Source: Promethearchaeota archaeon (GTDB lineage: Archaea; Asgardarchaeota; Lokiarchaeia; Sigyniarchaeales; SOKP01). Taken from it: a DNA stretch of 64,000 nt. How positions within the stretch are numbered: position 1 is the stretch's first letter; every line of letters starts with the position of its first letter. The notes below the pieces were generated by a model, which was not told where the DNA came from, did no database searches, and saw nothing but the letters and a program-made list of their open reading frames with translations. Position numbers and translations under genes: made by a program. The stretch covers positions 1-64,000 of the forward strand of contig JAUVNS010000013.1 in assembly GCA_030599585.1 (NCBI GenBank), read 5' to 3'. Positions 6,001 through 50,149 of this stretch are shown here, piece after piece.

Positions 6001-9000
6001 TCTGGGAAATATCAATTTCATTTTCGATTATATTACCATTTTGAACATTCAATAGGTATATACCCGTGCTCGAGTTAAAAATCATGCAATTTTTAATCAC
6101 AAAATACACGTTAGAATCTCGAATCGTAATGCAGTTCCCACCATTAGCATCTATGATGAGATTTTCGATAACATAAGGATCCAACTCCGTACCAGAACCG
6201 CTACACCATGGCTCCAAGGCCGCTTCCGCCCAAGTGTAATCACCCCCTCCGTTACTTACGTCATCATCTATGACAAATGACACAGGAGTATCCCCATCAT
6301 CCCAGATTGGATTATTATCCTGACTCCCTGCGTAACCGGGGATAAAATATGGAGTGTCTCCGATACCGTCATCGTTTACATCTACACCAGGATAATCATC
6401 CCAGTAATTATTACCCCAATGATTAATAATTCCATCATCCCAAGCATTTACTCCATTATCTAAAAATATGTTTCTTGAGAAACTATTTTTATGTTCATAT
6501 GGTGCATTCCATTCTGCTAAATAGATCCCATAATCATCGTTATTGCTTATTAAATTTCCAGCAATGTTATTATAAATGCAGCCAGTGTAATAAAATCCCC
6601 CTACTAAAATTCCTATACTATTTTCGTTTACAGTGTTGTTGATAATGGCATTTAAATAGCCATCCTCATTTAAACATATCCCAATTAGATTATTGTTTGC
6701 GGTGTTTCCCGTAATGGTATTTTCAGTATTTAAAAAGTGTAAATTTATTCCATATTGAGAGTTATTGTTTGCGGTGTTTCCCGTAATTGTATTACGATAG
6801 CACCAATAGGATAAACGAATTCCTTCATAAGTGTTGTTATTTGCGATATTTCCCGTAATTCTATTACTTTCACACGAGTACAAAGAGATCCCAATACCGT
6901 TATTCGAGCAATTATTATCAGTTATATTTCCGTTATTAACAGTTGACAACACTATACCCGCGCTCGAGTTGAAAATCGTGCAATTTCTAATCGTAAAATG
7001 CGCAGTAGAATCTCGAATCATAATACCGCTCCCACCACCACCATTTATGGCGAGATTCTCGATAACATAAGGATTCGATCCTATTCCTGCACCACTACAC
7101 CAAGACTCTAGAACTGCTTCTGCCCATGTATAATCTCCCGCACCATTGCTTACATCATCATCGATAACAAATGGCAGGAGTGGAGAATAATGTGCGATAC
7201 CAAACCAAGAAAAAGAGGAAACGTTGCCATAAATGATATTATTTATTGTGTCAATATTCGTTGTTGCATCCACCCAAGTTGTGCCGTTCCAATGTAAGAG
7301 CTGGAGTGCATTTTCTTCCTCAAACGTCATACCCGTACCATCATACGCAATACTAACAGTCACCGCTCCTGTATAAGTTGCGGAGGTTGTGATATCGTAA
7401 TAATTACCTAAGAATTGGAAGCCAGGCATCTCAGAGCCAGGGTTTTCGGTGTTCACAATAACTTGTGTATACCCTACATCAGTAACTTCCGAGAAGGTTA
7501 AGGAAACTTCAGGTGAAGCAATAATTTTGATACCGACTCCCGTGGGGGTATTTTTGAATGCCAACTTTGCAACGAAAGCATCACGACCTCCTGAGCTCGT
7601 CTGACCTGGGAGGGTACCACTCGTGTATCCGGTTACATAAGCTCCAGTAGAGTCAACTGCAACTCCAAAGGCTTCTTCTGCGGCCTCAGTCCCAAATTGA
7701 TGAGTCCAGATCTCGTTGCCGCTTTGGTCATACTTCCGAACAAATCCATCTACACTACCTGCACTAGTTTGACTTGGTAAGGAACCATAGGTCTGTCCTG
7801 CTACATACACCTCGCTTGCAAAGGTAAATACTTCGGAAATCCGATCATATTCTGAAGTTCCGAATTGATGAGTCCAGACTTCGTTGCCATTGTGGTCGTA
7901 TTTACGGATATAGGCATCATCATCTCCTGCATTTGTTTGGCCAGGTAGAGTGCCTTCTGTATGTCCAACGATGTATACGCCCGTAGAGTCAGTTTCGACA
8001 TCAATAGGTCTCTCTAATTCTGGGGTTCCAAACTGCCGGGTCCAGATCTCACTACCAGTATCGATGTCGTACTTTCGAACAAAATTGTCCGTACCACCTT
8101 CATTTATTTGGCCAGGTAGAGCGCCTTCTGTAAATCCAGCTATGTATACGCCAGTAGATTCAACGGAGATTGCTCGACCCCGGTCAGCGTTATTTAATAA
8201 AGTCCCGAACTGGAGATTCCAGAGCTCATTACCGTTGTGATCGAATTTGCGGACAAAAACATCCTCATTACCTTCTATTATGGTGCTTCCAACCACATAA
8301 ACACCGGAAAAATCAACAGAAATTTCAAAGGCAACTGGGGGAAAATATTGGGTCCAGATCGTATTACCATCATAGGGATTGTATTTACGGACAAAACCCA
8401 AACTACCTAAGATACCGGTCAAGTAGAGGCCAGTAGAGTCAATAGAGCTTCCCAGTATAAAGTCGTTAGCCGTAGTCCCGAATTGCTGGATCCAGAGCTG
8501 ATTTCCATTGTGATCGTACTTGCAAACAAAAGCGTCCTCGAAACCTACATTGCTCTGTAAGGGCAGAGCACCGTTAGTATGTCCCGCTACATAGACGCCA
8601 GTGGAGTCGACTGAAGTTACCCAAGCCTCGTCTATACCGTCAGTACCAAATTGACGAATCCATAACATTTCAGGTGGTAAATTGCTGGGGTCGAACCAGA
8701 ATGTTGTCACAGAGATGTCATTGGTGCTGGCGCCGTTGTCCACGTAAGCCACCTGGTTTCCGAACACACAATTCAATTTCTGGTCCCCGGCTCTGGTGGT
8801 TACTGCTAGGGTCTCCCCGGTGGATATGCGGTAGGCGAAGATGTCGTAATTGAGGTCGTTCAATCCATAATAGACCAGGGCCTCGTACGCGATGATGTCA
8901 CCATCGATGGTTGGTCCGTGGTTGTATCCTCCGTCGTCGATCACGACAATCGGCTCATCGCCGGAGTCGACATCGACCGCACATATTCTCGACACAGTAC

Positions 9001-29703: not shown

Positions 29704-30504
29704 ATGTCTAGTTCAGAAGACTGGTATGAAGTATTAGAGCATAAAGATTATTTATATGTTATAAAAGAAAGGCTTGATGAGATTGATCCTCGCTTTTATA
29801 CTACTTTTGTAAATATATATTTATTACTCGGTGATGAAAAAGCTTTTTTGATTGATACGGGATGTGGTCTCTTTCCTTTAAAACCAATTGTTGATAAAAT
29901 AATCGGAACAAGACAGCTTTTAGTAGTTAATTCTCATTTTCACTTTGACCATAGAGGGGCAAATGATGAATTTCCGGAAATATATATACATGAAAGTGAG
30001 AAAAACGGGGTTTCTTTGCCGTTAGATATGTCTTATATAAAAGATTCCTCAAAGGAGTTAGTAAATGAATATAGCAAAAAGGATTTCATTTTTAAACCTT
30101 CACCAATCGCAAATTCATTAAAAGAAGGAGATGAGTTTGATTTAGGAGGTATAAAAGTTAAGGTTTTTCATACTCCCGGCCATTCTATGGGCTCAATATC
30201 TCTTTTAACTGATAGGGGTGATCTATTTACGGGAGATACTGCTCATTATGGAGCGATGTACTTACCAAAAAAGCGACACTTTTCAGTAATTTTAGATAGC
30301 ATTTCAAAATTACTGGGACTTTTTGATAAATCGAATGTACAAGAAATTTATCCTTCACATGAAGAATATCCTGTAGGAAAGGAATTATTAGAAAAACTTT
30401 ATGAAGGTATAACTAACATTGAAAATATTTGGGATACCAAAACTAAAGATAGGTTTTTGGGTGCTTGGATTTTAGAGGACGAGAATTTTAAATATATTGT
30501 GTAA
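29704..30504 (+). CDS. MBL-fold metallo-hydrolase
   Basis: SHFHFDH, TPGHS, TGD and PSH motifs. Confidence 0.85.
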
Positions 30505-30514
30505 GTCGTTGATA

Positions 30515-33142
30515 ATGGAAAAAGTAGAGAAGATTATTTTATCGGAAAACTGGACATTACTACACAAAGAAAAAGGCTTAAATATTCCTACAGAGGTTCC
30601 TGGGTCTGTTTTTGAAACATTAATAGATAATGAAATAATAGAGGATCCCTTTTATGGTTTAAATGAGCATAAGATGAGTTGGGTATACAATTCAGAGTGG
30701 GATTATGAAACCGAATTTGATTTAGAACCAAGTTTTTTAGAGCACAAAGTAATACTACTCCGATTTTACGGACTGGATACCGTATCAGAAGTTGTGTTAA
30801 ATGGGGAAAGTCTTGGATTTACAGATAACATGTTCATTAGATACGATTTTAATGTAAAAACTAAAATTAAAAGTAAAAAAAATAAGTTAGTTGTTAAATT
30901 TAAGAGTCCAACTTTAAGAGCCCGGACAGAGAAAGAAAAAGAAGGAACAAATTTAAACACGGGTTATAATGCGATTCCTGGTGTACCTTATCTCCGTAAG
31001 GCTCAGTATTCATTTGGCTGGGATTGGGGGCCTAAGCTACCCGACATAGGGATATGGCAACCAGTTGAACTAATTGGTTACGATAATCTTAAAATTGATT
31101 CTATTTACATAAGTCAGACTCTACATTATAATAAAAATGTTAACGATTTAACTGAATTTGAAGAATTAACTGATATTGGAGTTATGTCAGCAGATTTATC
31201 AATCAAAATAAATTTAGAATCTATTTTACCAACAAGTGAGCTTAACCGTTACAGTTTAAAAGTGGATTTGAAAGCTCCTGATGGTAAGATATTTACTTCT
31301 GAGTTAGATATCAACAGTGTATCCCCTAAAGTTGAATTTACTCTTGAATATCCTTATCTATGGTGGACTCATGATCTAGGAGCTCCTAATCTATACGATC
31401 TCTCAATTACAATTAGTAAAAATGGTACAATAGATTCCTTCCAACAGAAAGTAGGCATAAAAGAGATTCGATTAATACAAAATACTGATGAATGGGGAGA
31501 ATCTTTTTTTTTTATGTTAAACGGAGTTCCAATATTTGCTAAAGGGGCTAATTGGATTCCAATCGATAGTTTTATTCCCAGAGGGAAAAAAAGAGGCTTA
31601 TACCACTCAAATTTGGGTGATGCTAAAGAAGCCAATATGAATATGATTCGCGTTTGGGGTGGTGGAATCTATGAAGATGATTTGTTTTACGATTTATGCG
31701 ATGAGTTAGGTATTTTGGTGTGGCAAGACTTCCCCTTTGCGTGTGCTGTTTATCCCTATAATGAAGAATTTATTGAGAGTTTTAAAATAGAAGCTACTCA
31801 AAACATTCAAAGATTGAGGAATCATCCAAGTTTGGCTTTATGGTGTGGTAATAATGAAATTGAATGGTTATGGAAATGGGAATTACATAATTCTGAGATT
31901 ACTCAAAATGATAAACTAAATGAATTCAAATTGGGATATTTAACAGTTTTTGAGAATATATTACCTGAATTAATAAATACCTACGACCCTAATCATTCCT
32001 ATTGGCCTAGCTCTCCTTCTAACGGCTTTGTGGGGAGTAGCCTTGGAACTAAAAATTCAAATTCACCAGATACTGGCGATTCACACTTTTGGGACGTTTG
32101 GCATAGAAATAAACCGTTTAGAGCCTATCGAAAATTTTATTCGCGTTTTATGTCAGAATTCGGTTATGAATCCTTCCCTTCCATCAAAACAATTGAAGAC
32201 GTCTGCCCTACTGATCAATTTGATTTCTTCTCGCCTATAATGGAAAGCCACCAAAAAAATTCTGCGGGGAATAAGAAAATATTAAATTATATGAAAAAAC
32301 GATTTGAAATTCCTCCTGAGTTTGAAAATCAAGTTATTTTATCTCAAATAACGCAAGCAGAAGCGATTGAATATGGAGTTGAACATTGGCGCCGAAATCG
32401 AAACCAAAATCACTGTATGGGTACTCTTTACTGGCAATTAAATGATTGTTGGCCAGTAGCTAGTTGGTCATCATTGGATTATTACGGTCGTTGGAAAGCG
32501 TTACATTATTATGCGAAAAGATTTTACCATCCTATTTTTCCGAGCGTTAAAGAAGATAAGAAATCTGTAGAGTTTTGGGTGTCAAATGATCTTCAAATAG
32601 CTAAGAATTTACAGTTTGAATGGAAAATACTTAAGTCAGACGGAAGAGTCGTAAAAAATGGCTTGTATGAATTAAATATTCGTCCTTGTTCGTCAAAAAA
32701 ACTAGGTATTATCGATGTTTCAAATTTAAATCGAATTAACGATAATTTAACGGATTTTATAATCTTTTATACCTTGAAGTTTACCAGCCTTGAAGGTGAA
32801 CGGGAATTTCATGGATTTAGGTTGTTTTCAGCTCCAAAGAAATTTCCGTTAGAAAATCCTAATATATCGTGGGAACTCAACGAATACTTCTGCGAAGAAT
32901 CCGATGAAAACAAATATGAACTCAAACTATCGACAACTCATATTGCGTTGTACGTCCACATAGATTCTAATAAATTCGATTTTATAGCGTCGGATAATTT
33001 CTTCTCCTTAGCACCAGGTGAGACGAGAGTTATTACTATAAAAGACTTAGGTTTAATATACTCCTCGGAACCTGCTTATCGAGATGTTAAGAAAGAAGAC
33101 TTTTCAGTGAAATCATTGTACGATTTGTTGGAGAATTCATAA
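30515..33142 (+). CDS. GH2 beta-mannosidase
   Basis: [32 protein letters not shown] (acid/base), RFMSEFG (nucleophile), YWQLND. ATG 30515 preferred to TTG 30497. Confidence 0.9.
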
Positions 33143-33203
33143 GCTTTTTACTTTCTAATTAAATATATTACTTAATTTAATTAGGCAATCAAGGATTGAG
33201 ATT

Positions 33204-34508
33204 TTGACAAAAAAGGAGAAAATAGTTATAATAGGGGCGGGCTCTTTACAATTTGGATTGGGTTCAGTTGGTAGTATAATGAATAGCGACGTTTTACAAG
33301 GTTCTACAATAAGTTTACACGATATTAATCAAACTAATTTAGATTTAGTAACCCAAGCTTGTCGAGCAGCTATTGAAAAAAAAAATTTCGACATAGAATT
33401 AGAAGCAACCACAGACAGGATAAAAGCGCTAAAAAATGCTACTTTTATAATTAATTCTATTGAAGTTGGGCCTAGATTTGAATGGTTTGATCTAGACTAC
33501 GAAACTCCTCGTAAATATGGTAATAAACAGGTAATGGGCGAAAATGGAGGACCTGGCGGTCTTTTTCACTCATTAAGAGTTATTCCCCCAATCCTTGAAA
33601 TATGTGATGATATTCAGAAAATCTGTCCAGATGCCTTCCTCATTAACTTTTCAAACCCTATGAGCAGAATTTGTTTAGCAATAAAAAGAAAGTATCCAAC
33701 TTTAAGATTTGTTGGACTCTGTCATGAGTTATTTGGGTTTCAAATGCACTATAGTAGAATACTTGAAACTCCTCTTAATAATCTCAAGATCATTGCTGGA
33801 GGATTAAACCATTTTGGAGTAGTATTATCTATAAAATATATTGACACCGGCAAAGATGCTTATCCAGATATTAGAAAAAAAGGTCCAGCTTATCTCAGCG
33901 AACTTAAAGGATTCGGGAATGATGTGGATTTAGTGAGATATATTCTTGAGAAGTTTGGATATATTGCTTACACCCCAGATTCTCATTATGGGGAATATAT
34001 AGGATGGGCATGGGAGAAGGCAAATTTAGAAGGTGTGAGATTATTTTATAACGGATATAAATTATATACAATTAAAGCAGGGGATCGATTGGTAAAGCGA
34101 ATAAAAAGAGGTAGTGGAGCAAATTTAGTAAAACCCGATAGCGAAAGAGCAATTCCTATTATTGAAGGGATTTTAACTGATTCGGGTCATGAAGAAATAT
34201 CTGTTAATTTGCCAAACGACGGAGTAATTACTAATTTACCTCAAGATTTGGTAGTAGAATGTCCGGCTATTGTTAATAAACATGGTATGGAGGCAATAAA
34301 ACTCGGAGAATATCCAAAAGGGTTAGCGGGGTTATTGAGAAATCAAGCCTCAGTTCAAGATTTAGTGGTAGAAGCCATTCTTAAAAAGTCAAAGGAAATC
34401 GCATTTCAAGCCTTACTTTTGGACCCAACCATAGAAAACACGTCAAAAGCCGAGGAGATGTTTGAAGAAATGATAAAGATAAATCAGGATTATATTGATT
34501 TACAATGA
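33204..34508 (+). CDS. GH4 NAD+/Mn2+-dependent alpha-galactosidase/alpha-glucosidase
   Basis: IIGAGS, GPGG, NFSNP, GLCH and GLNH motifs. Confidence 0.9.
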   Translation: MTKKEKIVIIGAGSLQFGLGSVGSIMNSDVLQGSTISLHDINQTNLDLVTQACRAAIEKKNFDIELEATTDRIKALKNATFIINSIEVGPRFEWFDLDYETPRKYGNKQVMGENGGPGGLFHSLRVIPPILEICDDIQKICPDAFLINFSNPMSRICLAIKRKYPTLRFVGLCHELFGFQMHYSRILETPLNNLKIIAGGLNHFGVVLSIKYIDTGKDAYPDIRKKGPAYLSELKGFGNDVDLVRYILEKFGYIAYTPDSHYGEYIGWAWEKANLEGVRLFYNGYKLYTIKAGDRLVKRIKRGSGANLVKPDSERAIPIIEGILTDSGHEEISVNLPNDGVITNLPQDLVVECPAIVNKHGMEAIKLGEYPKGLAGLLRNQASVQDLVVEAILKKSKEIAFQALLLDPTIENTSKAEEMFEEMIKINQDYIDLQ

Positions 34509-36496: not shown

Positions 36497-36599
36497 ACTA
36501 TATAATTCACTTATTTATGAATTTAAAATACATTTAATATCAATAATGACTTTTTTCAAATAAATTTAATATAAAATTAAAATAAAGTAGAACTAAATT

Positions 36600-37268
36600 A
36601 TGAAATATTTCTTAGATAGTGCCAAAATAGACGAAATTAAATATGCTTTAGAAAATTGGGGAATTGATGGCGTAACATCCAATCCGAAACATATCAAAAG
36701 TTCGGGCAAATCTTTCTATAGCGTAATAAAAGAATTTGCTGAAGAGTTCAAAGACATTAATTTTCCAATTTCCGTTGAGATTAACCCGCACATAGTTAAT
36801 TCAAAAGAAATGGTAGCTTCAGCGAAAGATATTGCTAAATTATCATCTAATTTTGTCATTAAAATCCCTTGTACAGAGCAAGGATTAATTGCTACTAAAA
36901 AATTAGTGGAAGCAAAGATAAAAGTAAATGTTACCTTAGTTTTCACAACTTCGCAAGCGTTACAGGTAGGGAGAATTGGAGCAGCTTATTGCTCTCCTTT
37001 CATTGGGTGGCAAGAAAACTCTGGCGTCGATTGCGAGCTTTTAATCTCGGATATAATGCTACTCTATAATAATTATGATTTCGCCACAGAAGTTATAGTA
37101 GCTGCTGTACGAAACGCCAAGCAAATAGTTGAAGCAGGTCGTTTTGGAGCAAATATTGTTACTGCGGGATTCCAAGTTTATAAAGATAGTTTTGAGCATC
37201 CCTTTACTGATAAAGGCTTAAAAATTTTTCAAGATGCATGGGATGATACGGAACTCGGAACATTATAA
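36600..37268 (+). CDS. sqvA: 6-deoxy-6-sulfofructose transaldolase-like protein (SqvA/SftT)
   Basis: Transaldolase fold (FLDSA, NP, Schiff-base VIKIP, NVTLVF). Subfamily-specific stretches MKYFLDSA..EI.YA.ENW.IDGVT.NP.HI, FPISVEINPH, SPF.GW.ENSG and SF.H.FTD.GL..F..AWD match my recollection of Bacillus SF-transaldolase. Confidence 0.8.
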   Translation: MKYFLDSAKIDEIKYALENWGIDGVTSNPKHIKSSGKSFYSVIKEFAEEFKDINFPISVEINPHIVNSKEMVASAKDIAKLSSNFVIKIPCTEQGLIATKKLVEAKIKVNVTLVFTTSQALQVGRIGAAYCSPFIGWQENSGVDCELLISDIMLLYNNYDFATEVIVAAVRNAKQIVEAGRFGANIVTAGFQVYKDSFEHPFTDKGLKIFQDAWDDTELGTL

Positions 37269-37277
37269 AACTAATCA

Positions 37278-38609
37278 GTGAGGATATGTAAATTGAAACA
37301 AAAAATTTGCGTTGGTATCGTTTGTTTAGCTCGAAAAACCTTCGATTATAAAGCAGCTGAAGAAATTTACAGCAAAATTAACGAGGATTTAAAGAATAAA
37401 GAACAAGTTCAATGGGAAATCATCCCGGATTTGCTTATCGAAGTAGAAGACGCTCAAGACGCGGCTCACACATTAGTTTCCAAAGAAATTGATGCTTTAG
37501 TATGTATTAGTGGGACTTTCGCATTAGGACATTTAATTTTAGAACTAAATAAAGTTATCAAAAAACCAATTTTATTATGGGGATTAGAAGAATTACCTTA
37601 TGACGGTGGAAAAATTCGGCTTAATTCTGTGTGTGGGATTAACTTAAATGCAAGTAATCTGTATAAAGCGGGTGTTAAGAATTACCAAGTTGTAATTGGC
37701 AACCAAATTGATGATGATTGGTTGAATGCAATTCGTATCGTTAAAGCTTTTTCTACAAATCGCATAGGAATTATTGGCTATAGAGCTAAAGGATTTTTTA
37801 ACTTAGATGTAGATGAATTGGATTTGTATAAGCAGGTGGGAGTTCTCGTTGATCATTTCGAGTTAAATGAGATTTACAACTATGAAGTTAACCAAGATAA
37901 AATAGAAGAAAGGGTACAGCAAATTAATTCGATTTTTGATGTATCTGACGTATCGGAACAACAAATACTTAAAGTTGCCGAGCTCACTACAAAATTTAAA
38001 GGGTTTATGAATAAACATCGATTAGATGCTCTCGCTATAAGATGTTGGCCAGAGTTCGCCGGAAATTTTGGCATTTCGCCATGTGCTGCGATGTCAATTT
38101 TACAATCAGAGGATAGAATTTTGACATGCGAAGGCGATTTGTTAGGATCTCTTTCAATGTTAGCTCATCAAGCGATAGGTGGTGAAACTCCTTTCTTAGC
38201 TGATTTTTCGCAAGTAGATATAAAAGAAAACTTCGGACTTCTGTGGCATTGCGGCGTTGCAGCATGTAATTTGTGGGATGGAAAGTGCATAAGATCGTTA
38301 GATACTTATTTTGCAGGGGGAAAAGGGGTAACAGCTGATTTTGTAATGAAATCTGGAGAGATTTCAATGCTTAGAATTGATTATACACCCGGAGAATATA
38401 GAATATTTTTACAGAGAGCGAGGGGTATCCCAATGGATAAGGATCTAAAGGGAACCTATGTTAAAGTAAGATTTGAAGATAATGTAAAGGATGTTCTGGA
38501 TAAAATTATTCAGAATGGAATAGCTCATCATGTATCTATTGTTTACGGAGAATATATAAAACCTTTAGAGATTTTTGCAAAGTTAAAAGGATGGAATATA
38601 ATAAAATAA
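37278..38609 (+). CDS. sqvD: L-fucose/arabinose-isomerase-family protein, SQ isomerase-like (SqvD/SftI)
   Basis: RKTFD, RLNS, RCWPEF, CEGD, WHCG and HH motifs; lies between the SF-transaldolase and SQase genes. Start possibly TTG 37293. Confidence 0.72.
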   Translation: MRICKLKQKICVGIVCLARKTFDYKAAEEIYSKINEDLKNKEQVQWEIIPDLLIEVEDAQDAAHTLVSKEIDALVCISGTFALGHLILELNKVIKKPILLWGLEELPYDGGKIRLNSVCGINLNASNLYKAGVKNYQVVIGNQIDDDWLNAIRIVKAFSTNRIGIIGYRAKGFFNLDVDELDLYKQVGVLVDHFELNEIYNYEVNQDKIEERVQQINSIFDVSDVSEQQILKVAELTTKFKGFMNKHRLDALAIRCWPEFAGNFGISPCAAMSILQSEDRILTCEGDLLGSLSMLAHQAIGGETPFLADFSQVDIKENFGLLWHCGVAACNLWDGKCIRSLDTYFAGGKGVTADFVMKSGEISMLRIDYTPGEYRIFLQRARGIPMDKDLKGTYVKVRFEDNVKDVLDKIIQNGIAHHVSIVYGEYIKPLEIFAKLKGWNIIK

Positions 38610-38626
38610 CAAACTAAGGGCTATTT

Positions 38627-40600
38627 ATGTTAGAATTTAAAGAATTAGATAATGGTTTTAAGTTACTGTTTAAGAATTATTTATTCTTAACGCATAGTCA
38701 AGATAATCCTTGTTTCAAAATAGGAAAAGGGAAAGCAAGTTATAAAATACATCATGGTCATTTTAAAATTAGGGAAAAAGAATTAACTGAAATTCCTTTA
38801 AAAAACTTCAATATTTGTTCTAAGGATGAAAGCAAAGTAATTATAGAGTTCATTTCTGGAGAGGAAAAATTAAAAGTCACCTTTTTTGTGGAAAAAGATC
38901 ACTTTAAGATGCACTTTGATTGTCCAAATTCAGAAATTAATCGGTTTTGGATGAAATTGCAAGCTAAAACAGATGAAGCGATTCATGGTTGTGGAGAACA
39001 ATTTTCAGAAGTTAATTTAAGGGGTAAAGAAGTTCCTTTATGGGTTGAGGAGCAAGGAGTAGGACGAGGAGATCCACCAATTACTGGAGATTGGTATACT
39101 ACGTATCATCCACAACCTACTTTTGTGTCTTCTCAGAACTATTTCTGTCACTGTGCAAGCACAAGTTATGCGAAGTTCAATTTCATTGAAAAGAATTACC
39201 ATGAATTATATATTTGGAGCGTACCTAAAGAAATCACATTTGGTAAATTTGATTCAGCTCTTGAAACTGTAAGTAACCTTTCAAAGTTGTTAGGATTACA
39301 ACCCATATTACCCGATTGGGTGTACGATGGGGTTTGGTTAGGAATTCAAGGCGGAAAAGACATTGTAGAACAAAAAGTACAGAAATGCTTAGAAAAAAAA
39401 GTTAAAATTGCGGCAGTGTGGTGCCAAGATTGGCAAGGAATACACATGCAAGGCGCCCAGAAGAGGTTGATTTGGAACTGGGAATACGACGAGGATTTAT
39501 ACCCCGATTTACCGTCCTATATAAAAAGCTTAAATGGTAGAGGTATAAAATATCTTGGATATAATAATTCTATGCTAGCAAAAGGAGGTGAACAGTACAA
39601 CGACGCCCTCAACAAAGATTTATGTGTTAAAGATAAAAACGGAAACCAATACAAGATAATCACTGACACTGGGGAAAAATCTATGCTTGATCTTAGCAAT
39701 CCAAATGCACTCCTATGGTTTAAAGAAATTATAAAAGAAAATATGATAAAGATTGGATTGTCAGGATGGATGGCTGATTATGGAGAATATCTACCTATTG
39801 ATGCAGTACTATATTCTGGTGAAAGTCCCGAAACTTTTCACAATAAATACCCTGTAATATTTGCTAAAGTTAATTTAGAAGCAATACAAGAAACGAGAAA
39901 AGAAGGAGAAATTGTATTTTTCACTAGAGCCGGTTATTCAAATATATCAAGATACACAACTTCAGTTTGGGCAGGCGATCAGTTAATAGATTGGAGTTTG
40001 GGTGATGGTTTAGGAACTGTTATTCCAGCAGGTATTTCTATTGGAATCTGTGGGATAGGGTATTACCATTTTGATATTGGCGGATTTCACAGTCTCGAAA
40101 ATTATATTCGAACTAAAGAAATGTTTATGCGTTGGACAGAGGCAAGCGTTTTTACGATGGTTATGCGTACTCATGAAAGTATAAAACCATTTGATAATTT
40201 ACAATTTGATTACGATGAAGAAACGCTTGAGCATTTCGCTAAAATGATAGACATACACGTTCAGCTTAAACCATATTTAAAACATCTCTCTGACGAATAC
40301 CAGAAAAAGGGGATATCGCCATTCAGAGGGTGTTTTTTACATTATGAAAACGATCATGAATTGCATAATCTCAAATACCAGTACTTACTTGGTTCTGAAT
40401 TACTGATAGCTCCCGTAATTAAGCAAGATAAAAAAAAATGGGAAATATATTTTCCTGACGATGTTTGGATTCATATTTGGACAGGAAAAGAGTACCTTAA
40501 AGGATGGAACAATGTAGATGCCCCTATTGGGCAACCACCCGTTTTTTACAGAAAAAATTCCAGCTTCAAAAATCTTTTCCAGACTTTTAGGGAGTACTAA
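38627..40600 (+). CDS. yihQ: GH31 sulfoquinovosidase (YihQ-like)
   Basis: GCGEQFS, EQGVGR, PQPTFVS, LGIQGG, QDW.G, KRLIWNW (sulfonate Arg/Trp), GWMADYGEYLP (nucleophile), WAGDQ (acid/base), MRTHE. Confidence 0.85.
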   Translation: MLEFKELDNGFKLLFKNYLFLTHSQDNPCFKIGKGKASYKIHHGHFKIREKELTEIPLKNFNICSKDESKVIIEFISGEEKLKVTFFVEKDHFKMHFDCPNSEINRFWMKLQAKTDEAIHGCGEQFSEVNLRGKEVPLWVEEQGVGRGDPPITGDWYTTYHPQPTFVSSQNYFCHCASTSYAKFNFIEKNYHELYIWSVPKEITFGKFDSALETVSNLSKLLGLQPILPDWVYDGVWLGIQGGKDIVEQKVQKCLEKKVKIAAVWCQDWQGIHMQGAQKRLIWNWEYDEDLYPDLPSYIKSLNGRGIKYLGYNNSMLAKGGEQYNDALNKDLCVKDKNGNQYKIITDTGEKSMLDLSNPNALLWFKEIIKENMIKIGLSGWMADYGEYLPIDAVLYSGESPETFHNKYPVIFAKVNLEAIQETRKEGEIVFFTRAGYSNISRYTTSVWAGDQLIDWSLGDGLGTVIPAGISIGICGIGYYHFDIGGFHSLENYIRTKEMFMRWTEASVFTMVMRTHESIKPFDNLQFDYDEETLEHFAKMIDIHVQLKPYLKHLSDEYQKKGISPFRGCFLHYENDHELHNLKYQYLLGSELLIAPVIKQDKKKWEIYFPDDVWIHIWTGKEYLKGWNNVDAPIGQPPVFYRKNSSFKNLFQTFREY

Positions 40601-40633
40601 TTTTTTTTAATACTATACAATGGTATAGTATTA
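40601..40633. terminator. T8 tract plus perfect 11-bp inverted repeat between convergent genes
   Basis: TAATACTATAC-AATG-GTATAGTATTA at 40608-40633, directly after the SQase stop. Confidence 0.5.
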
Positions 40634-40695
40634 CATCCCATATCACTCATTTACTCTTTACTTATAAGATTTTATTTAAATAAAAAAAAAAAGGT

Positions 40696-43600
40696 TTAAT
40701 TATTTAATTTTAGGTTTTTTCTTTTCAGAAGGATTATCGAAATTCCAACTGAAAATAGAATTAGCAGTAGTGGGCTATAACCAGGTATTTCTGTTGTTGG
40801 ATCAGTCAAGTTAAAGATTTCAAAATATTCACTATCATCAAAAGTTCCAGGATATTCCGCATCACTTATTCTTATTTGATATAAATCAGAACTTTCTAAA
40901 AGAAGAGATATCTCCCAGCTAAACTCACCATCATTAGGGGTGCTAGGATCGATTATTGCTACGAATGTCCCATTCTTATAAAGATCAATTCTTACGCCTG
41001 CAATATTTCCCTCTGAATTCCAATAGACATCTTTAGATAATCCAGCTAGCCAAATGCTAGAATTATCAGGTGTAGTAACATTAATGGATGCGATGTAGAA
41101 AGTAGGATCGTAAAGTATTAAGTTTTCTAGTAATCTAGTATAGTTTTTATTATGGTTCCATTCCAGTGGTTGATTAGTTGCTATGAAAAAGCCATTTCCG
41201 AATTCAAATTCAACGAGCACAGGATTCAATGTATTTCCATCGAGTAATATTTCTTTTGCCCCTACAGGATAAGTATTATAGTATCCATGTGACGAATACA
41301 ACCAATTATCCAATTCGTCGTCTTCAATTAACGAAGGAGCCAGTAATACGGGGTGGTGTTGCAGATTTATAGAAACATTCTGAATAGTGGTAAAAGTTTT
41401 ATTTAATCCCCCTGGCAACAAGTATGTTTCATTCCAATAGCCCAAAGCAGAACCTCCATCAGCAGTTGAAAGCATTATTATGCCTCCATTAGCAACATAA
41501 GATTCAAACCAAGCAGTGTTAGTAACCAACCTATCATAGAACAATTGACTCTGATCTGAAGAAATTACTACTTTTTGATAAGAGGATAAATCTACCACGC
41601 CCATATCTGACGAGTTATACATCATATACGAAAGATCATTATCAACCAGTATTGGTTCAGTTACATTTAGACCCCAAGGAGCTCCATCCTGAAAAATAGC
41701 TACAGGACCAGTGATAGGTTCGAATGTTATATCAAGGTAAAAATACAGATAGTCGTCGTCTCCACGCCAGTTTATATAATCAACTTGAGAATCCATTACA
41801 AATGTAGGATGGGATACATTTACAGTCCACCACCCTATTAGCAATCCAGTTATGTTATAGAACCCAGAGCTATCAGTAAATCCCTCATCAACTAATTCTC
41901 CACTTGTAGTATTAAAGCACCTAACATAAGCGTCTGGAATAGGATTGTAGTTATATGCATCATACACTCTTACTTCGATCCATCCAGGAGGTTTAAGTTC
42001 CAGGTAAAATGTGATGTAGTCGTCGTCCCCGTTCCAATTGATGTAATTATCTTTAGAATCGCCACCGTAATCCGAATGGGAAACCTCTATGGTATACCAA
42101 CCAATGTATAATCCTGTTACATTAAATATCCCAGAATTGTCAGTATATCCACTCGTAAAGTATGTTCCATTCAAGTAGTTACAAACAACGAGCACATTCT
42201 CAATGGGGAGTAGCGTATCGTCATCTTTCACTGTAACTTCGATATAACCACTATCAGGTGGCATCTCGTCTAAATAGTAAGTCAAGTAATCGTCATCTCC
42301 AGCCCAATTAATATAGGTTTGTTTAGTTTGTCCATGATATCCGTTTCTTGTGACTTCAACAGAGTACCAACCTATTGTTAAGCCGGTAACTTTATAGAAT
42401 CCTGAACTATCCGTATATCCTGTATCGATGACTAAACTCGATGTTACATTAGTAACTTCTACATATGCACTTGAAATTCCTAAATATGAAACCGAATCAA
42501 ATACATTTACATCAATATATCCACTATCTGGAGGTAAGACATCAAGATAAAACGTAAGATAGTCGTCGTCACCTCTCCAATTTATATAATTTGACCTAGA
42601 TTGTTCAGCATACCCTACATGAGAGACATTAACAACATACCACCCAATAACCAGTCCAGTTACGTTATAAAATCCTGAACTGTCAGTGAATCCGAAACCA
42701 TGGAAAGTTCCATTATCGTGCCAAACATCCACACGAACGCTCGGTTTTGGTCCTCCTGTTTCATTGTATACCCTTACTTCTATGTAGCCACTATCAACAG
42801 GTTTTTGAACTAAGAAAAAGGTCAGATAATCGTCATCGTAATTCCAGTTAATATAATTTTGCTTCGTTTGTGTAGCATACCCTACTTTTGATACAGTCAC
42901 CTCATACCATCCAATCCACAGCCCTGTAGCATTATAGAACCCCGCACCATTAGTATATCCCGTTTGGATCACCAGACCCGAGGACATATTAACAACTTGG
43001 ACATAAGCACTAACGATGGGATTAGATGTAGAACTATCCTTAACATTCACTTCGATCCAACTTGAATCAGGTGCTTGAGGAACTAAGTAAAAGTAAAGGT
43101 AGTCGTCATCATAGCCTTTAGCAAGATTGTGAATGGTGTTGAATTTAGTTTGAGGCACATAACCATTTTTAGTCACTTTTACATCGTAACTTCCAACAGC
43201 TAAGTTGGTAATGTTGTAAAATCCGTTACTATCAGTATATCCCGAATCAACAAGAGTCGTAGTTCCAGCTTCGTAGCATTTAACATAAGCGCTTGAAAGG
43301 TAAACGGATGTATCACTATCTCTTACTCGTACTTCTATATAACTAATGTCGGGATTTAGTCCAGTTACAGTGACTGGTGTGCTATGATGACCCTTGTTAT
43401 TCCCTTCGTCGAATTCGTCCACGTTATCGTTTTTATCAATAATCCAACCAATGTAATAAGATCCACCTGGAATATCTGGAAAGGTTCCAACCCAAGTCGC
43501 AGCGTCTGTTCCGAAAGCGGGAGTTGATTCTGCTGAACTTGTTCCAATATAGTAATCCGATGTTGAAATGTAATCGTTTGTTGAGGCATAGTAATGAACA

Positions 43601-44895
43601 TAATAAGTACCAGAAGAAGCTGTTCCAACATTTCGAATATTACTATCTATATCAATACTGTCAACTCCGGCTGTAACCGTATAATCGTTAACAGCTGAAC
43701 CACCGTTGTCTATTAAATCGGCTTTATCTGTAGGAGCAGAATCCGCAGCTAACCAAGTAAAAATTCTATCATACTTATCAGTATTTAGTCTAGTCCCATA
43801 GTTTGCATCTGGATTTCCAGGACCATATGCATGCGTAGTCATTATGTATCGAGATCCACTTTCATATCTCCATACTGGTCCTCCACTCTCTCCAGGCCCA
43901 GTATCGGCCCAGTAAAAGTGATTATTGGTGGTAGCACCATCTCCATTATTGTCGTCCCATACTAAACGGTTACCACTCGCAAAATCACCCGGATAACCCG
44001 CGACATTCATAAGTTGGTCATATATTGCGCTTCCCGAACCAGCAGTCATTCGTCCCATCCAACCTGTAAAACTGCCAATATTTCGATCAAGAGTAAGAAC
44101 GGCCCAATCGTGTTGTGCGCTTCCACTTACTGTCCATCCCGTATAGGATCGCATATTTGTAACCCATGCAGAGCCATATGGATCAGAGGGTGTATCCGAA
44201 GTGTCCATTGCAGCAACTACCTCTATATTTGTGGCCCATCCTTCATTGGGACCATCACGTAAATAAGCACAGTGGCCCGCCGTTAAAATGTGAAAATTAT
44301 CGATCACTGCTCCTGAACCAGAATAAGTGCCACCCCAAGGAGCTGACATGTATAATTTAACTATGGTTCTCCATGGAAATACGTTTTGATTTGTGATGAC
44401 TGATCGTTGATCTCCAGGTGGGTTATCCGTAACTGCTTCAGCCCCACCTCCAGCCAGAAGTCCAGCATATGGTTCAACTTTCATAATTTCTGCAGAAGAT
44501 TCAGGTTTAGGAGTGAATTGTGGAGTAGTTATAGTCTCTATTCCAGTTAAAGCGTTATATGAGGCAGTTTCAATGCCGCCTACGCCTGATTCACTATCGT
44601 ATGGATTATATATCAATGTTTCACCAACAGGCTTCCATTCAAAGACGTTCCTATCGTAAGTTGATTCAGGGTTTTCTTCACCATAAAAATCTAGTTCATT
44701 ATATTGTTCATTTATTACAAATTCCTCGTCAATCGAGGATTGATCTGAATCAAAATTACCATCTAACTCTATAATATCCTCACTTTGTTCATCAAAAGGA
44801 TTGAAAGTTATAGCACTCGAAAAGAAAGATATAATCAGAAGTCCTAAGAAAATCAAAGATATAGCTTGTGTTGATTTGTTTTTTTTAATTAACAT
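40696..44895 (-). CDS. Cell-anchored S1 (V8/glutamyl-endopeptidase-like) serine protease with CARDB-like domain, six carboxypeptidase-regulatory-like repeats, Ig-like domain and Loki-CTERM-type anchor
   Basis: Signal peptide; triad ILTAGHC / HDWAVL / DTGPGESGGP; six ~90-aa repeats ending DDDY(L/I)xFxL; IPGY + hydrophobic helix + KRK at the C-terminus. Confidence 0.88.
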   Translation of the reverse strand: MLIKKNKSTQAISLIFLGLLIISFFSSAITFNPFDEQSEDIIELDGNFDSDQSSIDEEFVINEQYNELDFYGEENPESTYDRNVFEWKPVGETLIYNPYDSESGVGGIETASYNALTGIETITTPQFTPKPESSAEIMKVEPYAGLLAGGGAEAVTDNPPGDQRSVITNQNVFPWRTIVKLYMSAPWGGTYSGSGAVIDNFHILTAGHCAYLRDGPNEGWATNIEVVAAMDTSDTPSDPYGSAWVTNMRSYTGWTVSGSAQHDWAVLTLDRNIGSFTGWMGRMTAGSGSAIYDQLMNVAGYPGDFASGNRLVWDDNNGDGATTNNHFYWADTGPGESGGPVWRYESGSRYIMTTHAYGPGNPDANYGTRLNTDKYDRIFTWLAADSAPTDKADLIDNGGSAVNDYTVTAGVDSIDIDSNIRNVGTASSGTYYVHYYASTNDYISTSDYYIGTSSAESTPAFGTDAATWVGTFPDIPGGSYYIGWIIDKNDNVDEFDEGNNKGHHSTPVTVTGLNPDISYIEVRVRDSDTSVYLSSAYVKCYEAGTTTLVDSGYTDSNGFYNITNLAVGSYDVKVTKNGYVPQTKFNTIHNLAKGYDDDYLYFYLVPQAPDSSWIEVNVKDSSTSNPIVSAYVQVVNMSSGLVIQTGYTNGAGFYNATGLWIGWYEVTVSKVGYATQTKQNYINWNYDDDYLTFFLVQKPVDSGYIEVRVYNETGGPKPSVRVDVWHDNGTFHGFGFTDSSGFYNVTGLVIGWYVVNVSHVGYAEQSRSNYINWRGDDDYLTFYLDVLPPDSGYIDVNVFDSVSYLGISSAYVEVTNVTSSLVIDTGYTDSSGFYKVTGLTIGWYSVEVTRNGYHGQTKQTYINWAGDDDYLTYYLDEMPPDSGYIEVTVKDDDTLLPIENVLVVCNYLNGTYFTSGYTDNSGIFNVTGLYIGWYTIEVSHSDYGGDSKDNYINWNGDDDYITFYLELKPPGWIEVRVYDAYNYNPIPDAYVRCFNTTSGELVDEGFTDSSGFYNITGLLIGWWTVNVSHPTFVMDSQVDYINWRGDDDYLYFYLDITFEPITGPVAIFQDGAPWGLNVTEPILVDNDLSYMMYNSSDMGVVDLSSYQKVVISSDQSQLFYDRLVTNTAWFESYVANGGIIMLSTADGGSALGYWNETYLLPGGLNKTFTTIQNVSINLQHHPVLLAPSLIEDDELDNWLYSSHGYYNTYPVGAKEILLDGNTLNPVLVEFEFGNGFFIATNQPLEWNHNKNYTRLLENLILYDPTFYIASINVTTPDNSSIWLAGLSKDVYWNSEGNIAGVRIDLYKNGTFVAIIDPSTPNDGEFSWEISLLLESSDLYQIRISDAEYPGTFDDSEYFEIFNLTDPTTEIPGYSPLLLILFSVGISIILLKRKNLKLNN

Positions 44896-44922
44896 TTTTT
44901 TTAACCCTTTTTTGTAGATTAG

Positions 44923-44948
44923 ATTTCGTATTATGAAAAATACGAAAT
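44923..44948. promoter_or_regulatory. 10-bp inverted repeat, candidate operator upstream of the protease gene
   Basis: ATTTCGTATT-ATGAAA-AATACGAAAT, 27 nt upstream of the ATG. Confidence 0.35.
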
Positions 44949-45252
44949 TAAAATATACATAGAATTTGAGAATTTAAATATTTGCGATAATAGATGAGAA
45001 TTTGAACACTTATTGATAATTTTTGTACACTAAATGCTTTTAAATTACATTTTTGGCTCTTTTATGAATACCTATTCGATAATTATAATATTTAAGAACA
45101 AAAATTAGTCAACTTTGTCGTTGGATTATCTTAGAAATTACAACTCACATTCAAAATTGAATCTAGATAATTTTTTTATTCGAAAGTTGATTAACATAGT
45201 ATTATAAAAAGATAAATTTAACACCATAGCAATAAGATAAATATTATTTAAT

Positions 45253-45486
45253 ATGAGACCGCCAATTTGTTGTATTTGCGATAAAAAGTTAGACTACCCT
45301 AATGATGGTGGACTAATATATTTTAAGAAAAGAGCATCAGATATAGAATGGGGAAATATGATGGAAAGAGAGGGAATGGTAGGTCATCCCCCTTTTGCAG
45401 AGTGGTTTTGTGGAGACCATTATAAAAAAGCGTTTGAACTAAAAGATTTAACAATAGATAAGGCTATGAAACATTTACAACCCTAA
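45253..45486 (+). CDS. Small Cys/His Zn-binding hypothetical protein
   Basis: MRPPICCIC ... GHP...WFCGDH; 77 aa. Confidence 0.7.
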   Translation: MRPPICCICDKKLDYPNDGGLIYFKKRASDIEWGNMMEREGMVGHPPFAEWFCGDHYKKAFELKDLTIDKAMKHLQP

Positions 45487-47270: not shown

Positions 47271-48566
47271 TTATAATTTGCTGGAAATTAGTCGTTCATC
47301 TTTTATTTTACCATTTAAAAGTGGGTCGTTAGTTTCTTTCATCCAATCTAGGAGTTTTTGCCTTAATACGAATAGGGTATTTTCATAGGTGGGATTATTG
47401 ACAAGATTATTAACCTCGTTTGGATCTTTCTCCAAGTCGTAAAGTTCTTCTTCAGCTCTCTTCATCTTTATTTTATCCTTTAGTTCTTGCCCAGATAACC
47501 CCCTCTCAATATCTAATGGTATTTGATACAGATATTCGCATGGCTCAAAATTGCGAATATATTTAAACGCTCTAGTTCTGACGCTCCTCAGAGGATCATA
47601 CATATCGTGATAATTTTTTTCTGTAAAGATTTCACTTCTAAAAGGGAGCGTAGTATCTTTTAGAACAGGTAGAAAGCTTTTCCCCTCAATTTTTTCAGGA
47701 ATTTGTGCTCCAATAAAATCTAACAATGTCGGCAAAAGATCAATATTGCTTATCATTTGTTTAAAGACTTGTCCACCATTAAATAATTTTTGATTAGGAC
47801 AGTTCATTACGAGTAGAATTTTTATTCCCGGATCATATAGCGTACATTTAGCTCTTGGGAAAGGGCTTCCATGATCGGTAGTATATATAAATAGCGTATT
47901 CTCTCTTAAACCAGTCCTTTCTAAAATTTCAATAATTTTTCCTATTATTTCATCTACAGGATTGATAATTCCATAATACAAACTAAGATCTTTACGAACC
48001 TTATCGTTGTCAGGTAGAAATGGAGGGACTTTTACGGAGTACGTATCGTTAGCTTGGCTCCATATAACAAAAGGTCTGTGTATTTCTATTGTACCGATAT
48101 TGAGAAAAAAGGGCTTTTCGTCATTTCTATGATTTTCTAGGAAACTTTCGTATTCACTAAACATTCTATTCGTATCGTATCTGTAATCTTTCATTCTTTT
48201 GCTAACAGTATCGTATCCTAATGTCTTGACATCTATCGCTTCATGTTGTAAACCAATTAAATGGGTTGAATAACCAGCCTCTCTGAGGTACATAGGAATA
48301 GTTCTATTTCTGGAGGGTAGAGACCAACCGCGATTCACCAACCCCATTAAACCATTTTGATGCGGATAAAGAGATGTTTGGATACTTCCTCGACTTGGTG
48401 AACATTGCGGTGCTGTACAAAAATAATTCGTAAATCGTATTCCGTCTTTAGCAAGTTTATCCAGATTAGGTGTTTTTAGGGAATTTGGTGTTGCAGGTGT
48501 ATTGTAACATTTAAGAAATTGACCTTGATCGTGCGTTATAAATAGTATTATGTTCGGTTTTTTCAA
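47271..48566 (-). CDS. Formylglycine-dependent sulfatase (sulfamidase-like)
   Basis: KPNIILFITHD, CSPSR (CxPxR), PHQNG, TTDHG, EELYDL. Confidence 0.9.
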   Translation of the reverse strand: MKKPNIILFITHDQGQFLKCYNTPATPNSLKTPNLDKLAKDGIRFTNYFCTAPQCSPSRGSIQTSLYPHQNGLMGLVNRGWSLPSRNRTIPMYLREAGYSTHLIGLQHEAIDVKTLGYDTVSKRMKDYRYDTNRMFSEYESFLENHRNDEKPFFLNIGTIEIHRPFVIWSQANDTYSVKVPPFLPDNDKVRKDLSLYYGIINPVDEIIGKIIEILERTGLRENTLFIYTTDHGSPFPRAKCTLYDPGIKILLVMNCPNQKLFNGGQVFKQMISNIDLLPTLLDFIGAQIPEKIEGKSFLPVLKDTTLPFRSEIFTEKNYHDMYDPLRSVRTRAFKYIRNFEPCEYLYQIPLDIERGLSGQELKDKIKMKRAEEELYDLEKDPNEVNNLVNNPTYENTLFVLRQKLLDWMKETNDPLLNGKIKDERLISSKL

Positions 48567-48724
48567 ATATATTCACTTTTAAAAATAACGCTATATCAGA
48601 AATAAAATTACTTTCGATGCTAGAAAAAATAAAAAATAAGCTAATTAATTTATTAAAAATGAAAATTATAAAAAGATGGTCATCTAATATTTAAAAATAC
48701 ATAATAAATTATTTAACAAAAAAA

Positions 48725-50149
48725 TTGGCTAATATTATGGAAAAAGATGTTTTAGATATTAAACATAGTAAGTTGGGTATGGCGTCTTACGGTTTCAACT
48801 CCTTTTCTAGAGAAATGCTTAGAATTGCCTTTACAACTTTTGGGTTCTTTTTTTATGAGTCTGAACTAGGGTTAAATGTGTGGTTGATATTTTTAGCATA
48901 TTTAATTTTTGCGATTTATAATATGTTTAACGACCCGCTTGTTGGATACTTAACAAATAAGCCCTTCAAGTTTACTAAAAAATGGGGCAGAAGATTTCCC
49001 TGGATTTTACTTGGTGGGCTGCCTTGGGGTTTTACATATATGCTTATATTTACGCCACCAACTTATGATGCTGTAGGAGGTGCGTGGATTTTATTCGCTT
49101 GGCTTCTCTTTACTACGTGTTTGTTTGATACATTTCACTCAATCTTATTTGTTAACTTTCAGTCGTTATTCGTTGATAAATATCGATCAGTTCAGGAGCG
49201 TAGAACTGCCAGTGGTATATATATTATGATAGGCGTTATAGGGGTTGCTTTAGGCTCTATTCTACCACCTTTATTATTTCAAACTACAGAAGGTACAGTT
49301 ACAAACTACCCCTCTTTTGCTTTTCAAGGTCTGATAGTAGCTATTATTTCGTTTGTTGGTTTTGCGTTAGCTATACCAGGTTCACGCGAAGATCAAGTTA
49401 CAATTGATCTTTATTTGGCTTCACAAACGGGAGAACGAGAAAAAACTCCTTTTTTTAAAACCCTATGGACCGCATTAAAGCAGACGCCATTCGTTGCATT
49501 CATGATATTTTACCTACTCTACCAGACTTTAGTAGAAATGATGCAAGCTTCCGTCCTATACACGGTTAAATATTCCCTGAAAATGGACGACTCAGCCACG
49601 ACTCTAATATTTGCGGCATTTCTTATTGGAGTACTAGTTTCAACCCCCTTTTGGATTTATTATTCAAAGAAAGTCAAAAATAATAAAAAAGTAATGTTGA
49701 TTTCTGGTTTACTTCTGGCTGCTTTTACAATACCAATAACATTTTATAGAGACTACTGGTTAATAGTTTTTGAGATGTTATTATGGGGATTAGCTATGGG
49801 AGGTTTCTGGATAATGATATTCCCAGTATCTGCAGATGTAATCGATAACGCAGTAGTGGCAACAAAAAAACGCGAAGAAGGAGTTTATACGGGATTTCAA
49901 CAATTTTTTGGTAGGATGGGAATAATAATTCAAGCTCTCACATTTGCATTAATTCATGAGCTCACAGGTTTCGACGAAGCTTTAGGAACAGCTCAACCAG
50001 AATCGGCAATTTGGGGTATTCACTTTCATCAAGCTCTCATACCCGCGATCTTAGTTATTATAGGTGCTCTTGTCTTTTGGAAGTGGTATAAGTTAACTCC
50101 AGAAAAAGTGCTAGAAAATCAGGAAAAAATTAAAGAAATGGGGATATAA
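48725..50149 (+). CDS. GPH-family (MelB/YihO-like) glycoside:cation symporter, MFS
   Basis: FNDPLVGYL, WGRRFPWI, ADVID...RExGVY; about 12 TM helices. Confidence 0.85.
   Translation: MANIMEKDVLDIKHSKLGMASYGFNSFSREMLRIAFTTFGFFFYESELGLNVWLIFLAYLIFAIYNMFNDPLVGYLTNKPFKFTKKWGRRFPWILLGGLPWGFTYMLIFTPPTYDAVGGAWILFAWLLFTTCLFDTFHSILFVNFQSLFVDKYRSVQERRTASGIYIMIGVIGVALGSILPPLLFQTTEGTVTNYPSFAFQGLIVAIISFVGFALAIPGSREDQVTIDLYLASQTGEREKTPFFKTLWTALKQTPFVAFMIFYLLYQTLVEMMQASVLYTVKYSLKMDDSATTLIFAAFLIGVLVSTPFWIYYSKKVKNNKKVMLISGLLLAAFTIPITFYRDYWLIVFEMLLWGLAMGGFWIMIFPVSADVIDNAVVATKKREEGVYTGFQQFFGRMGIIIQALTFALIHELTGFDEALGTAQPESAIWGIHFHQALIPAILVIIGALVFWKWYKLTPEKVLENQEKIKEMGI

Follow-up and report, generated by a model that had tools for sequence, protein, structure and literature searches.

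Does a Lokiarchaeia archaeon encode the enzymes to degrade sulfoquinovose (SQ), a sulfur sugar that abounds in the membranes of plants and algae? The question is raised by three genes in a stretch of 64,000 nucleotides, hereafter the window, which comprises positions 1 to 64,000 of contig JAUVNS010000013.1 of a Promethearchaeota archaeon (GenBank assembly GCA_030599585.1). Three co-oriented open reading frames (ORFs) occupy the + strand at 36600-37268, 37278-38609, and 38627-40600, encoding 222, 443 (counted from a GTG), and 657 aa, respectively, and their products match the Pfam families TAL_FSA, Fucose_iso_C, and GH31 in gene order. The original prediction, made from the sequence alone, had read these ORFs as a core sulfoglycolysis operon. 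The positions and families that it gave proved correct, and the motifs that it quoted are present and common to the sulfofructose (SF) transaldolase of B. megaterium, to YihQ, and to SqvD of P. megaterium (RKTFD and RLNS). Based on the sequence comparisons described here, we consider it probable that the three genes encode the core of a sulfofructose transaldolase (SFT) pathway, also termed sulfo-TAL, in a Lokiarchaeia archaeon.

The bacterial sulfo-TAL pathway supplies the order of reactions that we propose (PMC7491151). A cytoplasmic GH31 enzyme is predicted, from its family membership and residues, to release SQ from SQ-glycerol or related glycosides. A metal-dependent isomerase of the FucI fold may convert SQ to SF, as gene context and fold suggest. 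The transaldolase, in which all published residues are kept, would very probably cleave SF through a Schiff base at Lys88 and transfer its C3 moiety to glyceraldehyde 3-phosphate, yielding fructose 6-phosphate (F6P) and sulfolactaldehyde (SLA). F6P could then enter glycolysis via phosphofructokinase (PFK) and class I aldolase-family genes; genes for PFK and for a DeoC-family (class I) aldolase are present in this genome, and no class II aldolase was found in it.

The three candidate enzymes

The transaldolase (36600-37268, + strand) scores 302 bits against BmSF-TAL of B. megaterium (8BC3) versus 156 against the best TalC, and its score on the TalC equivalog stays under the cut-off. It shares 64% identity with P. 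megaterium SqvA. The residues that define SF transaldolases, as listed in PMC11659671 after Snow et al., are D6, E61, K89, N111, and S133 together with a sulfonate-orienting WAR motif with W138; while the motif and W138 are given there, the placement of A and R at positions 170 and 172 is our reading of the alignment. All eight residues are kept (D6, E60, K88, N110, S132, W137, A169, and R171), whereas Loki TalC copies carry R/S/R at the W/A/R positions. The pocket equals that of BmSF-TAL apart from a conservative R30K replacement, which also occurs in Bacillus and clostridial clusters. In a phylogenetic tree, the protein falls inside a 75-row SqvA clade (support 100) with a long branch to TalC. 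Housekeeping TalC, found in other members of the genus, shares the fold, 40% identity, and the Schiff-base lysine, but has GR where GW is present here and shows linkage with transketolase rather than with the isomerase or YihQ. Bit scores, residues, and tree all agree with the earlier assignment to the SqvA rather than the ordinary TalC type, and they strongly suggest that the only transaldolase of this genome is a 6-deoxy-6-sulfofructose transaldolase of the SqvA/SftT type.

The GH31 protein (38627-40600, + strand) is a candidate sulfoquinovosidase (SQase) of the YihQ/SftG type. It scores 793 bits against the YihQ equivalog NF007746, for which the cut-off is 553, and 604-639 bits against the three closest solved SQases (639 for 8R56 and 630 for EcYihQ), compared with at most 143 against other GH31 proteins. 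Identity to the YihQ-type SQase of Priestia is 43%. The catalytic Asp pair is kept as D384 and D451 (D405 and D472 in the reference numbering), as are Q241, Q267, R280, and W283, the last three of which correspond to Q288, R301, and W304. According to PMC12780224 and PMC8006165, the sulfonate motif of YihQ is Q/E-R-W-Y (Q288, R301, W304, and Y508), and the contact of Y508 to the sulfonate goes via water. The original claim of a YihQ-type SQase is borne out by the equivalog score, the Asp pair, and the Q/R/W residues, with a replacement of Y508 as its qualification.

The isomerase (PF02952; 37293-38609, + strand, 438 aa, with an alternative GTG start at 37278) belongs to a second SqvD-like subfamily. 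Its AlphaFold model has a predicted local distance difference test score (pLDDT) of 92 and template modeling (TM) scores of 0.86 to L-arabinose isomerases (AraA) and 0.77-0.81 to FucI. E280, D304, H319, and H413 are invariant in the isomerase, and an alignment across both subfamilies retains RLN, RCWP, E280, D304, and H413 throughout. We take E280, D304, and H413 to be the counterparts of the FucI metal ligands. A FucI-like paralog on contig C8 has RRD instead of RLN. The tree places the protein in a separate subfamily (support 99) comprising Asgard sequences and proteins of Caloramator, Spirochaetes, Planctomycetes, and Lachnospiraceae, the bacterial members having been picked by their position beside an SqvA-type gene. 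The same subfamily adjoins sqvA, sftR, sqvB, and yihQ in Caloramator and Lachnospiraceae clusters, and sqvA in Spirochaete clusters.

Distribution among archaea and origin of the genes

The closest relatives of this genome are Promethearchaeota (Lokiarchaeia) metagenome-assembled genomes (MAGs), and Candidatus Lokiarchaeum ossiferum belongs to the same order. The conservation of the trio across Asgard MAGs was examined in 60 relatives, 17 of which have the SqvA-type transaldolase; the isomerase accompanies it in all 17 and YihQ in 16. Such co-occurrence counts are given without a p-value because related genomes are not independent. In a phylum-wide draw, the SqvA-type gene was found in 16 of 300 Asgard genomes, 13 of them from this order, and of the three SqvA-bearing genomes from other Asgard classes two carry the whole trio on one contig. 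NCBI labels of two genomes, Hermodarchaeota (L001) and Bathyarchaeota (L036), look wrong, since these genomes are placed in this genus or order; the same probably holds for L006 and L015.

We compared 33 archaeal loci over 8 kb on either side of the transaldolase gene. The isomerase is present in 27 and YihQ in 17, followed by an AEC-family exporter (9), an SftR-type reductase (7), and SqvB (0); over this range, 8 loci have a sulfatase gene and 10 a GPH transporter gene. An exporter of the same kind also occurs in bacterial clusters. The reductase gene, present in L. ossiferum and six other relatives, is inserted after the transaldolase gene, and its L. ossiferum copy is 40-49% identical to SftRs of bacterial clusters and bears the GenBank label 3-sulfolactaldehyde reductase, an automatic annotation. 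The L. ossiferum B35 set consists of UYP45182.1, UYP45183.1, UYP45188.1, and UYP46230.1. By contrast, none of the trio appears to be present in G050, probably the genome of P. syntrophicum MK-D1.

The two types of transaldolase keep different company. Transketolase is encoded on the same contig in 8 of 9 genomes with TalC, whereas any transketolase was found in only 2 of 17 genomes with SqvA; there was no transketolase match in this genome or in the other 15 SqvA-bearing relatives. Of 26 relatives with a transaldolase match, not one has the two types together. The SqvA-type gene travels with SQ genes and not with the pentose phosphate pathway. Because ordinary TalC travels with transketolase, which is absent here, a housekeeping role of the transaldolase is less likely.

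In each of the three trees the archaeal sequences form a group, with a support of 95 for the transaldolase (one SAR324 protein among them) and 85 for the isomerase; in the GH31 tree, a branch with support 99 sets the bacterial sequences apart. This pattern suggests that the genes were acquired long ago and later lost in a patchy manner. The transfer from anaerobic bacteria that had been proposed is plausible, and a direction from bacteria to archaea is likely on diversity grounds. The trees do not establish this direction: archaea are nested in bacterial SqvA in the C20 tree of the transaldolase but not in the LG tree, in which the bacteria fall to one side (support 51). For the isomerases, monophyly of the bacterial sequences was not rejected (p-AU 0.134). 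The bacterial sample in these trees is biased to top matches.

Counter-evidence, downstream steps, and alternative explanations

Several observations weigh against an SQ pathway in this archaeon. The isomerase shares ~30% identity with P. megaterium SqvD, and on NF048012, the SqvD/SftI equivalog, it reaches 241 bits, for a cut-off of 700. The P. megaterium protein scores 829, and isomerases of other bacterial SQ clusters score 176-402; because these also fall below the cut-off, the model is narrow. According to PMC11659671, an SQ-induced isomerase of Faecalicatena is 32% identical to SftI of SOS1. We found no characterized member of the isomerase subfamily, and a Lachnospiraceae query gave only uncharacterized gut MAGs. 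Of the SqvD-type identity claimed originally, the RKTFD and RLNS motifs and the gene slot thus stand, and orthology to a characterized SqvD/SftI does not. Gene context and fold point to an SqvD-like enzyme that is no SqvD/SftI member by the curated cut-off, and the isomerase is the weakest link of the trio. In the GH31 protein, F487 replaces the sulfonate-pocket Tyr of E. coli (Y508), and an 11-residue N-terminal loop is missing. Within the sampled sequences, Phe at this position is found in archaeal rows only. Many other Asgard copies, that of L. ossiferum included, carry Gln in place of Arg at R301, as do several copies from gut Firmicute clusters; since the equivalent Arg is kept here, this GH31 protein is among the more canonical Asgard copies.

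Further counter-evidence comes from gene content. Three near-complete genomes (G023, G035, and G036; loci L111, L108, and L109) have retained the isomerase and YihQ but show no SqvA-type transaldolase, and the latter two have no transaldolase of any type, which may reflect either decay or another cleavage enzyme. Genes of 620 aa beside the isomerase in G023 and G035 were considered as transketolases and rejected; they encode Glu/Leu/Phe/Val-dehydrogenase-CBS proteins. One Asgard genome, G252, has the transaldolase alone. Lastly, in this 100%-complete genome no ortholog of SftR, SlaB, SqvB, the SSS importer, or TauE was found, the best matches being 29-32% identical to SftR (with a generic DAPVSGG motif) and 27% to SlaB. 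P. megaterium SqvB gave no tblastn match, and a family search for SqvB/SftX (DUF4867), run without a positive control, gave none either.

Because an SftR or SlaB ortholog is absent, SLA would be handled by unlinked enzymes in this genome. The likeliest, if tentative, route is conversion to sulfolactate by one of nine aldehyde:ferredoxin oxidoreductase (AOR) homologs; alternatively, a generic dehydrogenase might convert SLA to 2,3-dihydroxypropane-1-sulfonate (DHPS). Relatives such as L. ossiferum have a dedicated SftR-type reductase and an exporter inside the cluster. An ortholog of the AEC exporter (51% identical to a cluster-linked one) lies on contig C20 of this genome in a different gene context. 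The nine AOR homologs are at most 33% identical to, and not members of, a distinct AOR clade that is present in four relatives (63-73% identity among themselves) and was not found in the other 58. Its genes lie between the transaldolase and isomerase genes (L006 and L023), just upstream of the isomerase gene (G023), or ~14 kb off (G014). Pairs of ferredoxin and AOR genes occur in or beside SQ clusters at L006:8769-11079, L023:10402-12724, and L111:12119-14367, and the cluster-linked pair is a candidate SLA:ferredoxin oxidoreductase. A sulfo-TK route was rejected for this genome, in which no SqwG, SqwH, or SqwI was found.

It is also conceivable, in our view improbable, that SQ is both split and anaerobically desulfonated in one cell, where an AOR would oxidize SLA (a reaction not described so far), a SuyAB-like pair would cleave sulfolactate to pyruvate and sulfite, and two ComC-like dehydrogenases would aid. 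If true, Asgard archaea would themselves carry out the primary and complete degradation of SQ in anoxic sediment. On contig C24 (L172:10439-15922), an AOR gene is divergent to a split pair of SAF and UxaA-family (SuyAB-like) genes, which converges on LutB-like genes. The pair (96 and 395 aa) fits the architecture of SuyAB; its sole family match is galactarate dehydratase, below the cut-off, and its nearest records (at most 45% identity) bear the names UxaA family hydrolase or galactonate dehydratase. Of 36 members of the genus, 32 have the large subunit; the pair was not found in L. ossiferum. Its distribution does not follow that of the SQ genes, so the pair lends the operon no support. The pair, the AOR, and the two ComC-like dehydrogenase genes all score below curated cut-offs and are leads only. 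Two other sets of candidates in this genome were rejected: five glycyl radical enzymes (L174-L178) reach at most 555 bits as HpsG/HpfG (cut-off 1000) and no named equivalog, and a Gfo/Idh/MocA gene on contig C9 gave no match as GH188.

The trio might direct the same chemistry at a related 6-modified substrate, be it a sugar or a glycoside, such as another sulfosugar or the SQ of archaeal N-glycans, instead of plant or algal sulfolipid head groups. SQ has been found in N-glycans of Sulfolobales (PMC11284389), and the altered SQase pocket (Y508F here and R301Q in many Asgard copies), the distinct and uncharacterized isomerase subfamily, and the absence of SqvB from all 33 loci would fit such a substrate. 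By contrast, the transaldolase pocket resembles that of BmSF-TAL save for R30K, which Bacillus and clostridial clusters share, and members of this isomerase subfamily are found together with a canonical YihQ in bacterial clusters (Caloramator); we regard a different substrate as unlikely. We assign a still smaller probability to a partial or decaying cluster, in which the enzymes act on SQ and the strain cannot run the pathway after losing the aldehyde step and the importer. The genome lacks an ortholog of an SLA enzyme, and the SftR-type reductase was found in just 1 of 36 genomes of the genus. However, the three ORFs are intact, the three-gene form is kept across many contigs at 75-97% identity, and many generic aldehyde-handling enzymes are encoded in this genome.

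An ordinary sugar module, consisting of an α-glucosidase, a neutral-sugar isomerase, and a housekeeping transaldolase, would account for this being the sole transaldolase of the genome and for the failure of the two transaldolase types to co-occur, and bacterial SftT and SftI also act on sedoheptulose 7-phosphate and F6P (PMC7491151). This explanation appears very improbable: the phosphate-binding Arg is replaced by Trp, there is no non-oxidative pentose phosphate pathway to serve without transketolase, and the GH31 protein scores 630 bits to YihQ versus 143 to general GH31. The possibility that the trio is a mis-assembled or contaminating bacterial segment could draw on the estimated contamination of 8.9% in this 4.85-Mb genome, but the trio order and its flanks recur in independent JGI, ENA, NCBI, and Logan assemblies and in three other species, and the nearest relatives are all Asgard. 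GC (0.34-0.35) and GC at third codon positions (GC3; 0.26-0.28) of the trio are like those of neighboring genes. Contig taxonomy agrees, the Lokiarchaeia host suggested earlier is upheld, and the independent assemblies refute an artifact of this kind. The core of a sulfo-TAL pathway acting on SQ is thus the reading that we prefer.

Locus layout, neighboring genes, and relation to known systems

Upstream of the trio, an AT-rich intergenic region (36497-36599; 103 bp, 11.7% GC), described in the original prediction and confirmed here, separates the transaldolase gene from a divergent M28 peptidase gene and presumably contains the promoter. A TATA-like stretch at ~36565-36576 is indistinguishable from the AT-rich background. 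The region is near-identical in one 97% relative and similar in loci L002 and L003. A sigma-70 promoter scan, which uses a bacterial model uninformative for an archaeon, gave 15 sites versus 21 expected, and an Rfam search of the window gave no match. For the isomerase, TTG 37293 (438 aa) is a more probable start than GTG 37278 (443 aa), because almost all homologs have 438 aa; gene callers are divided between the two starts, and a GAGG ribosome-binding-like motif precedes the TTG. The intergenic gaps would therefore be 24 and 17 nt, so that of the 9 and 17 nt reported earlier only the second holds.

Both elements of the terminator proposed in the original prediction are real: a T8 run (40601-40608) and an 11-bp perfect hairpin (40608-40633; z -3.96), together at 40601-40633 on the + strand, with just 18 such repeats in the genome. 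The T8 run comes before the hairpin, not after it, and a terminator scan, likewise uninformative for an archaeon, did not call the hairpin. Because both lie inside a 4.7-kb segment (40561-45244) that is missing from four 97%-identical contigs, they came with a strain-specific insertion and are a possible terminator in this strain only, not a conserved operon terminator. The segment replaces the last ~13 GH31 codons and parts the GH31 gene from an ORF of ~75 aa. It encodes a 1399-aa secreted trypsin-like protease with CARDB and carboxypeptidase-regulatory repeats (40696-44895, - strand). In the four near-identical contigs, GH31 runs into the ~75-aa ORF and converges on an alanyl-tRNA-editing gene. 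This ORF (about 45250-45480, + strand) has a CCIC/C-rich pattern and no Pfam match on record, and starts 13 nt after GH31 in these contigs and in L001-L003, where it is possibly a fourth operon gene.

Pfam identifies a sulfatase gene (47271-48566, - strand) and a GPH-family MFS sugar transporter gene (48725-50149, + strand) at 47271-50149; operon membership is not shown. The transporter, ~8 kb from the trio, is a candidate that may import SQ. Genes for an MBL hydrolase, a GH2 (β-mannosidase-like), and a GH4 (α-galactosidase-like) protein lie at 29704-34508, and GH4 and GH2 genes are near SQ genes in 5 and 7 of the 33 archaeal loci, respectively. Speculatively, their presence there might stem from the use of galactolipid head groups of thylakoids. 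In 9 of the 33 loci (for example, L004:5667-7292), a NagB-like gene (glucosamine-6-phosphate deaminase fold) is found upstream of the transaldolase gene, usually accompanied by an amidohydrolase gene; the NagB-like gene was not found in this genome. At the edge of the window (2-11056, - strand), an Asn-rich secreted protein of more than 3685 aa with β-helix-like repeats extends beyond the window, and the middle of its gene, at 7-11 kb, is GC-richer (0.46-0.48).

The sulfo-TAL systems of Priestia megaterium DSM 1804 and P. aryabhattai SOS1 comprise SqvA/SftT, SqvD/SftI, SftG, SlaB/SftD, and SqvB/SftX (PMC7491151, PMC12890257). The archaeal locus resembles them in its clustered SqvA-type transaldolase (64%), YihQ-type SQase (43%), PF02952 isomerase, and predicted products. 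It differs in its archaeal host, a 30%-identical isomerase of another subfamily, the Y508F SQase, and a cluster without SlaB, SqvB, or a regulator. The anaerobic sulfo-TAL variant with SftR (Eubacterium rectale and Clostridium symbiosum) is mirrored by SftR and exporter genes in Asgard relatives including L. ossiferum, whereas this genome has no SftR ortholog and some Asgard relatives have AOR and ferredoxin in the cluster instead. By sequence, the nearest clusters are uncharacterized ones of Caloramator and Spirochaetes (isomerase 55% and 60%, transaldolase 64-69%).

In conclusion, the sulfo-TAL pathway itself is known and has so far been characterized only in bacteria; the conserved core seen here in Lokiarchaeia departs from it in the isomerase, the SQase pocket, and the missing accessory steps. 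In line with the original prediction, our literature check, with most subscription journals outside the search, found no characterized archaeal SFT pathway, and according to a 2026 review none has been characterized. The result is only moderately surprising, given that the chemistry was known already and that bacterial-type metabolic genes are numerous in Asgard genomes. The locus points to an uncharacterized SQ-isomerase subfamily and possibly to a ferredoxin-linked aldehyde step, and is testable, as the cultured relative L. ossiferum B35 carries the same genes. If active, the operon would add Lokiarchaeia to the degraders of a sulfosugar of ~10 billion tonnes per year, would suggest cross-feeding of C3 sulfonates to sulfite-respiring partners, and would offer a defined and selective carbon source for organisms whose cultivation is very difficult.

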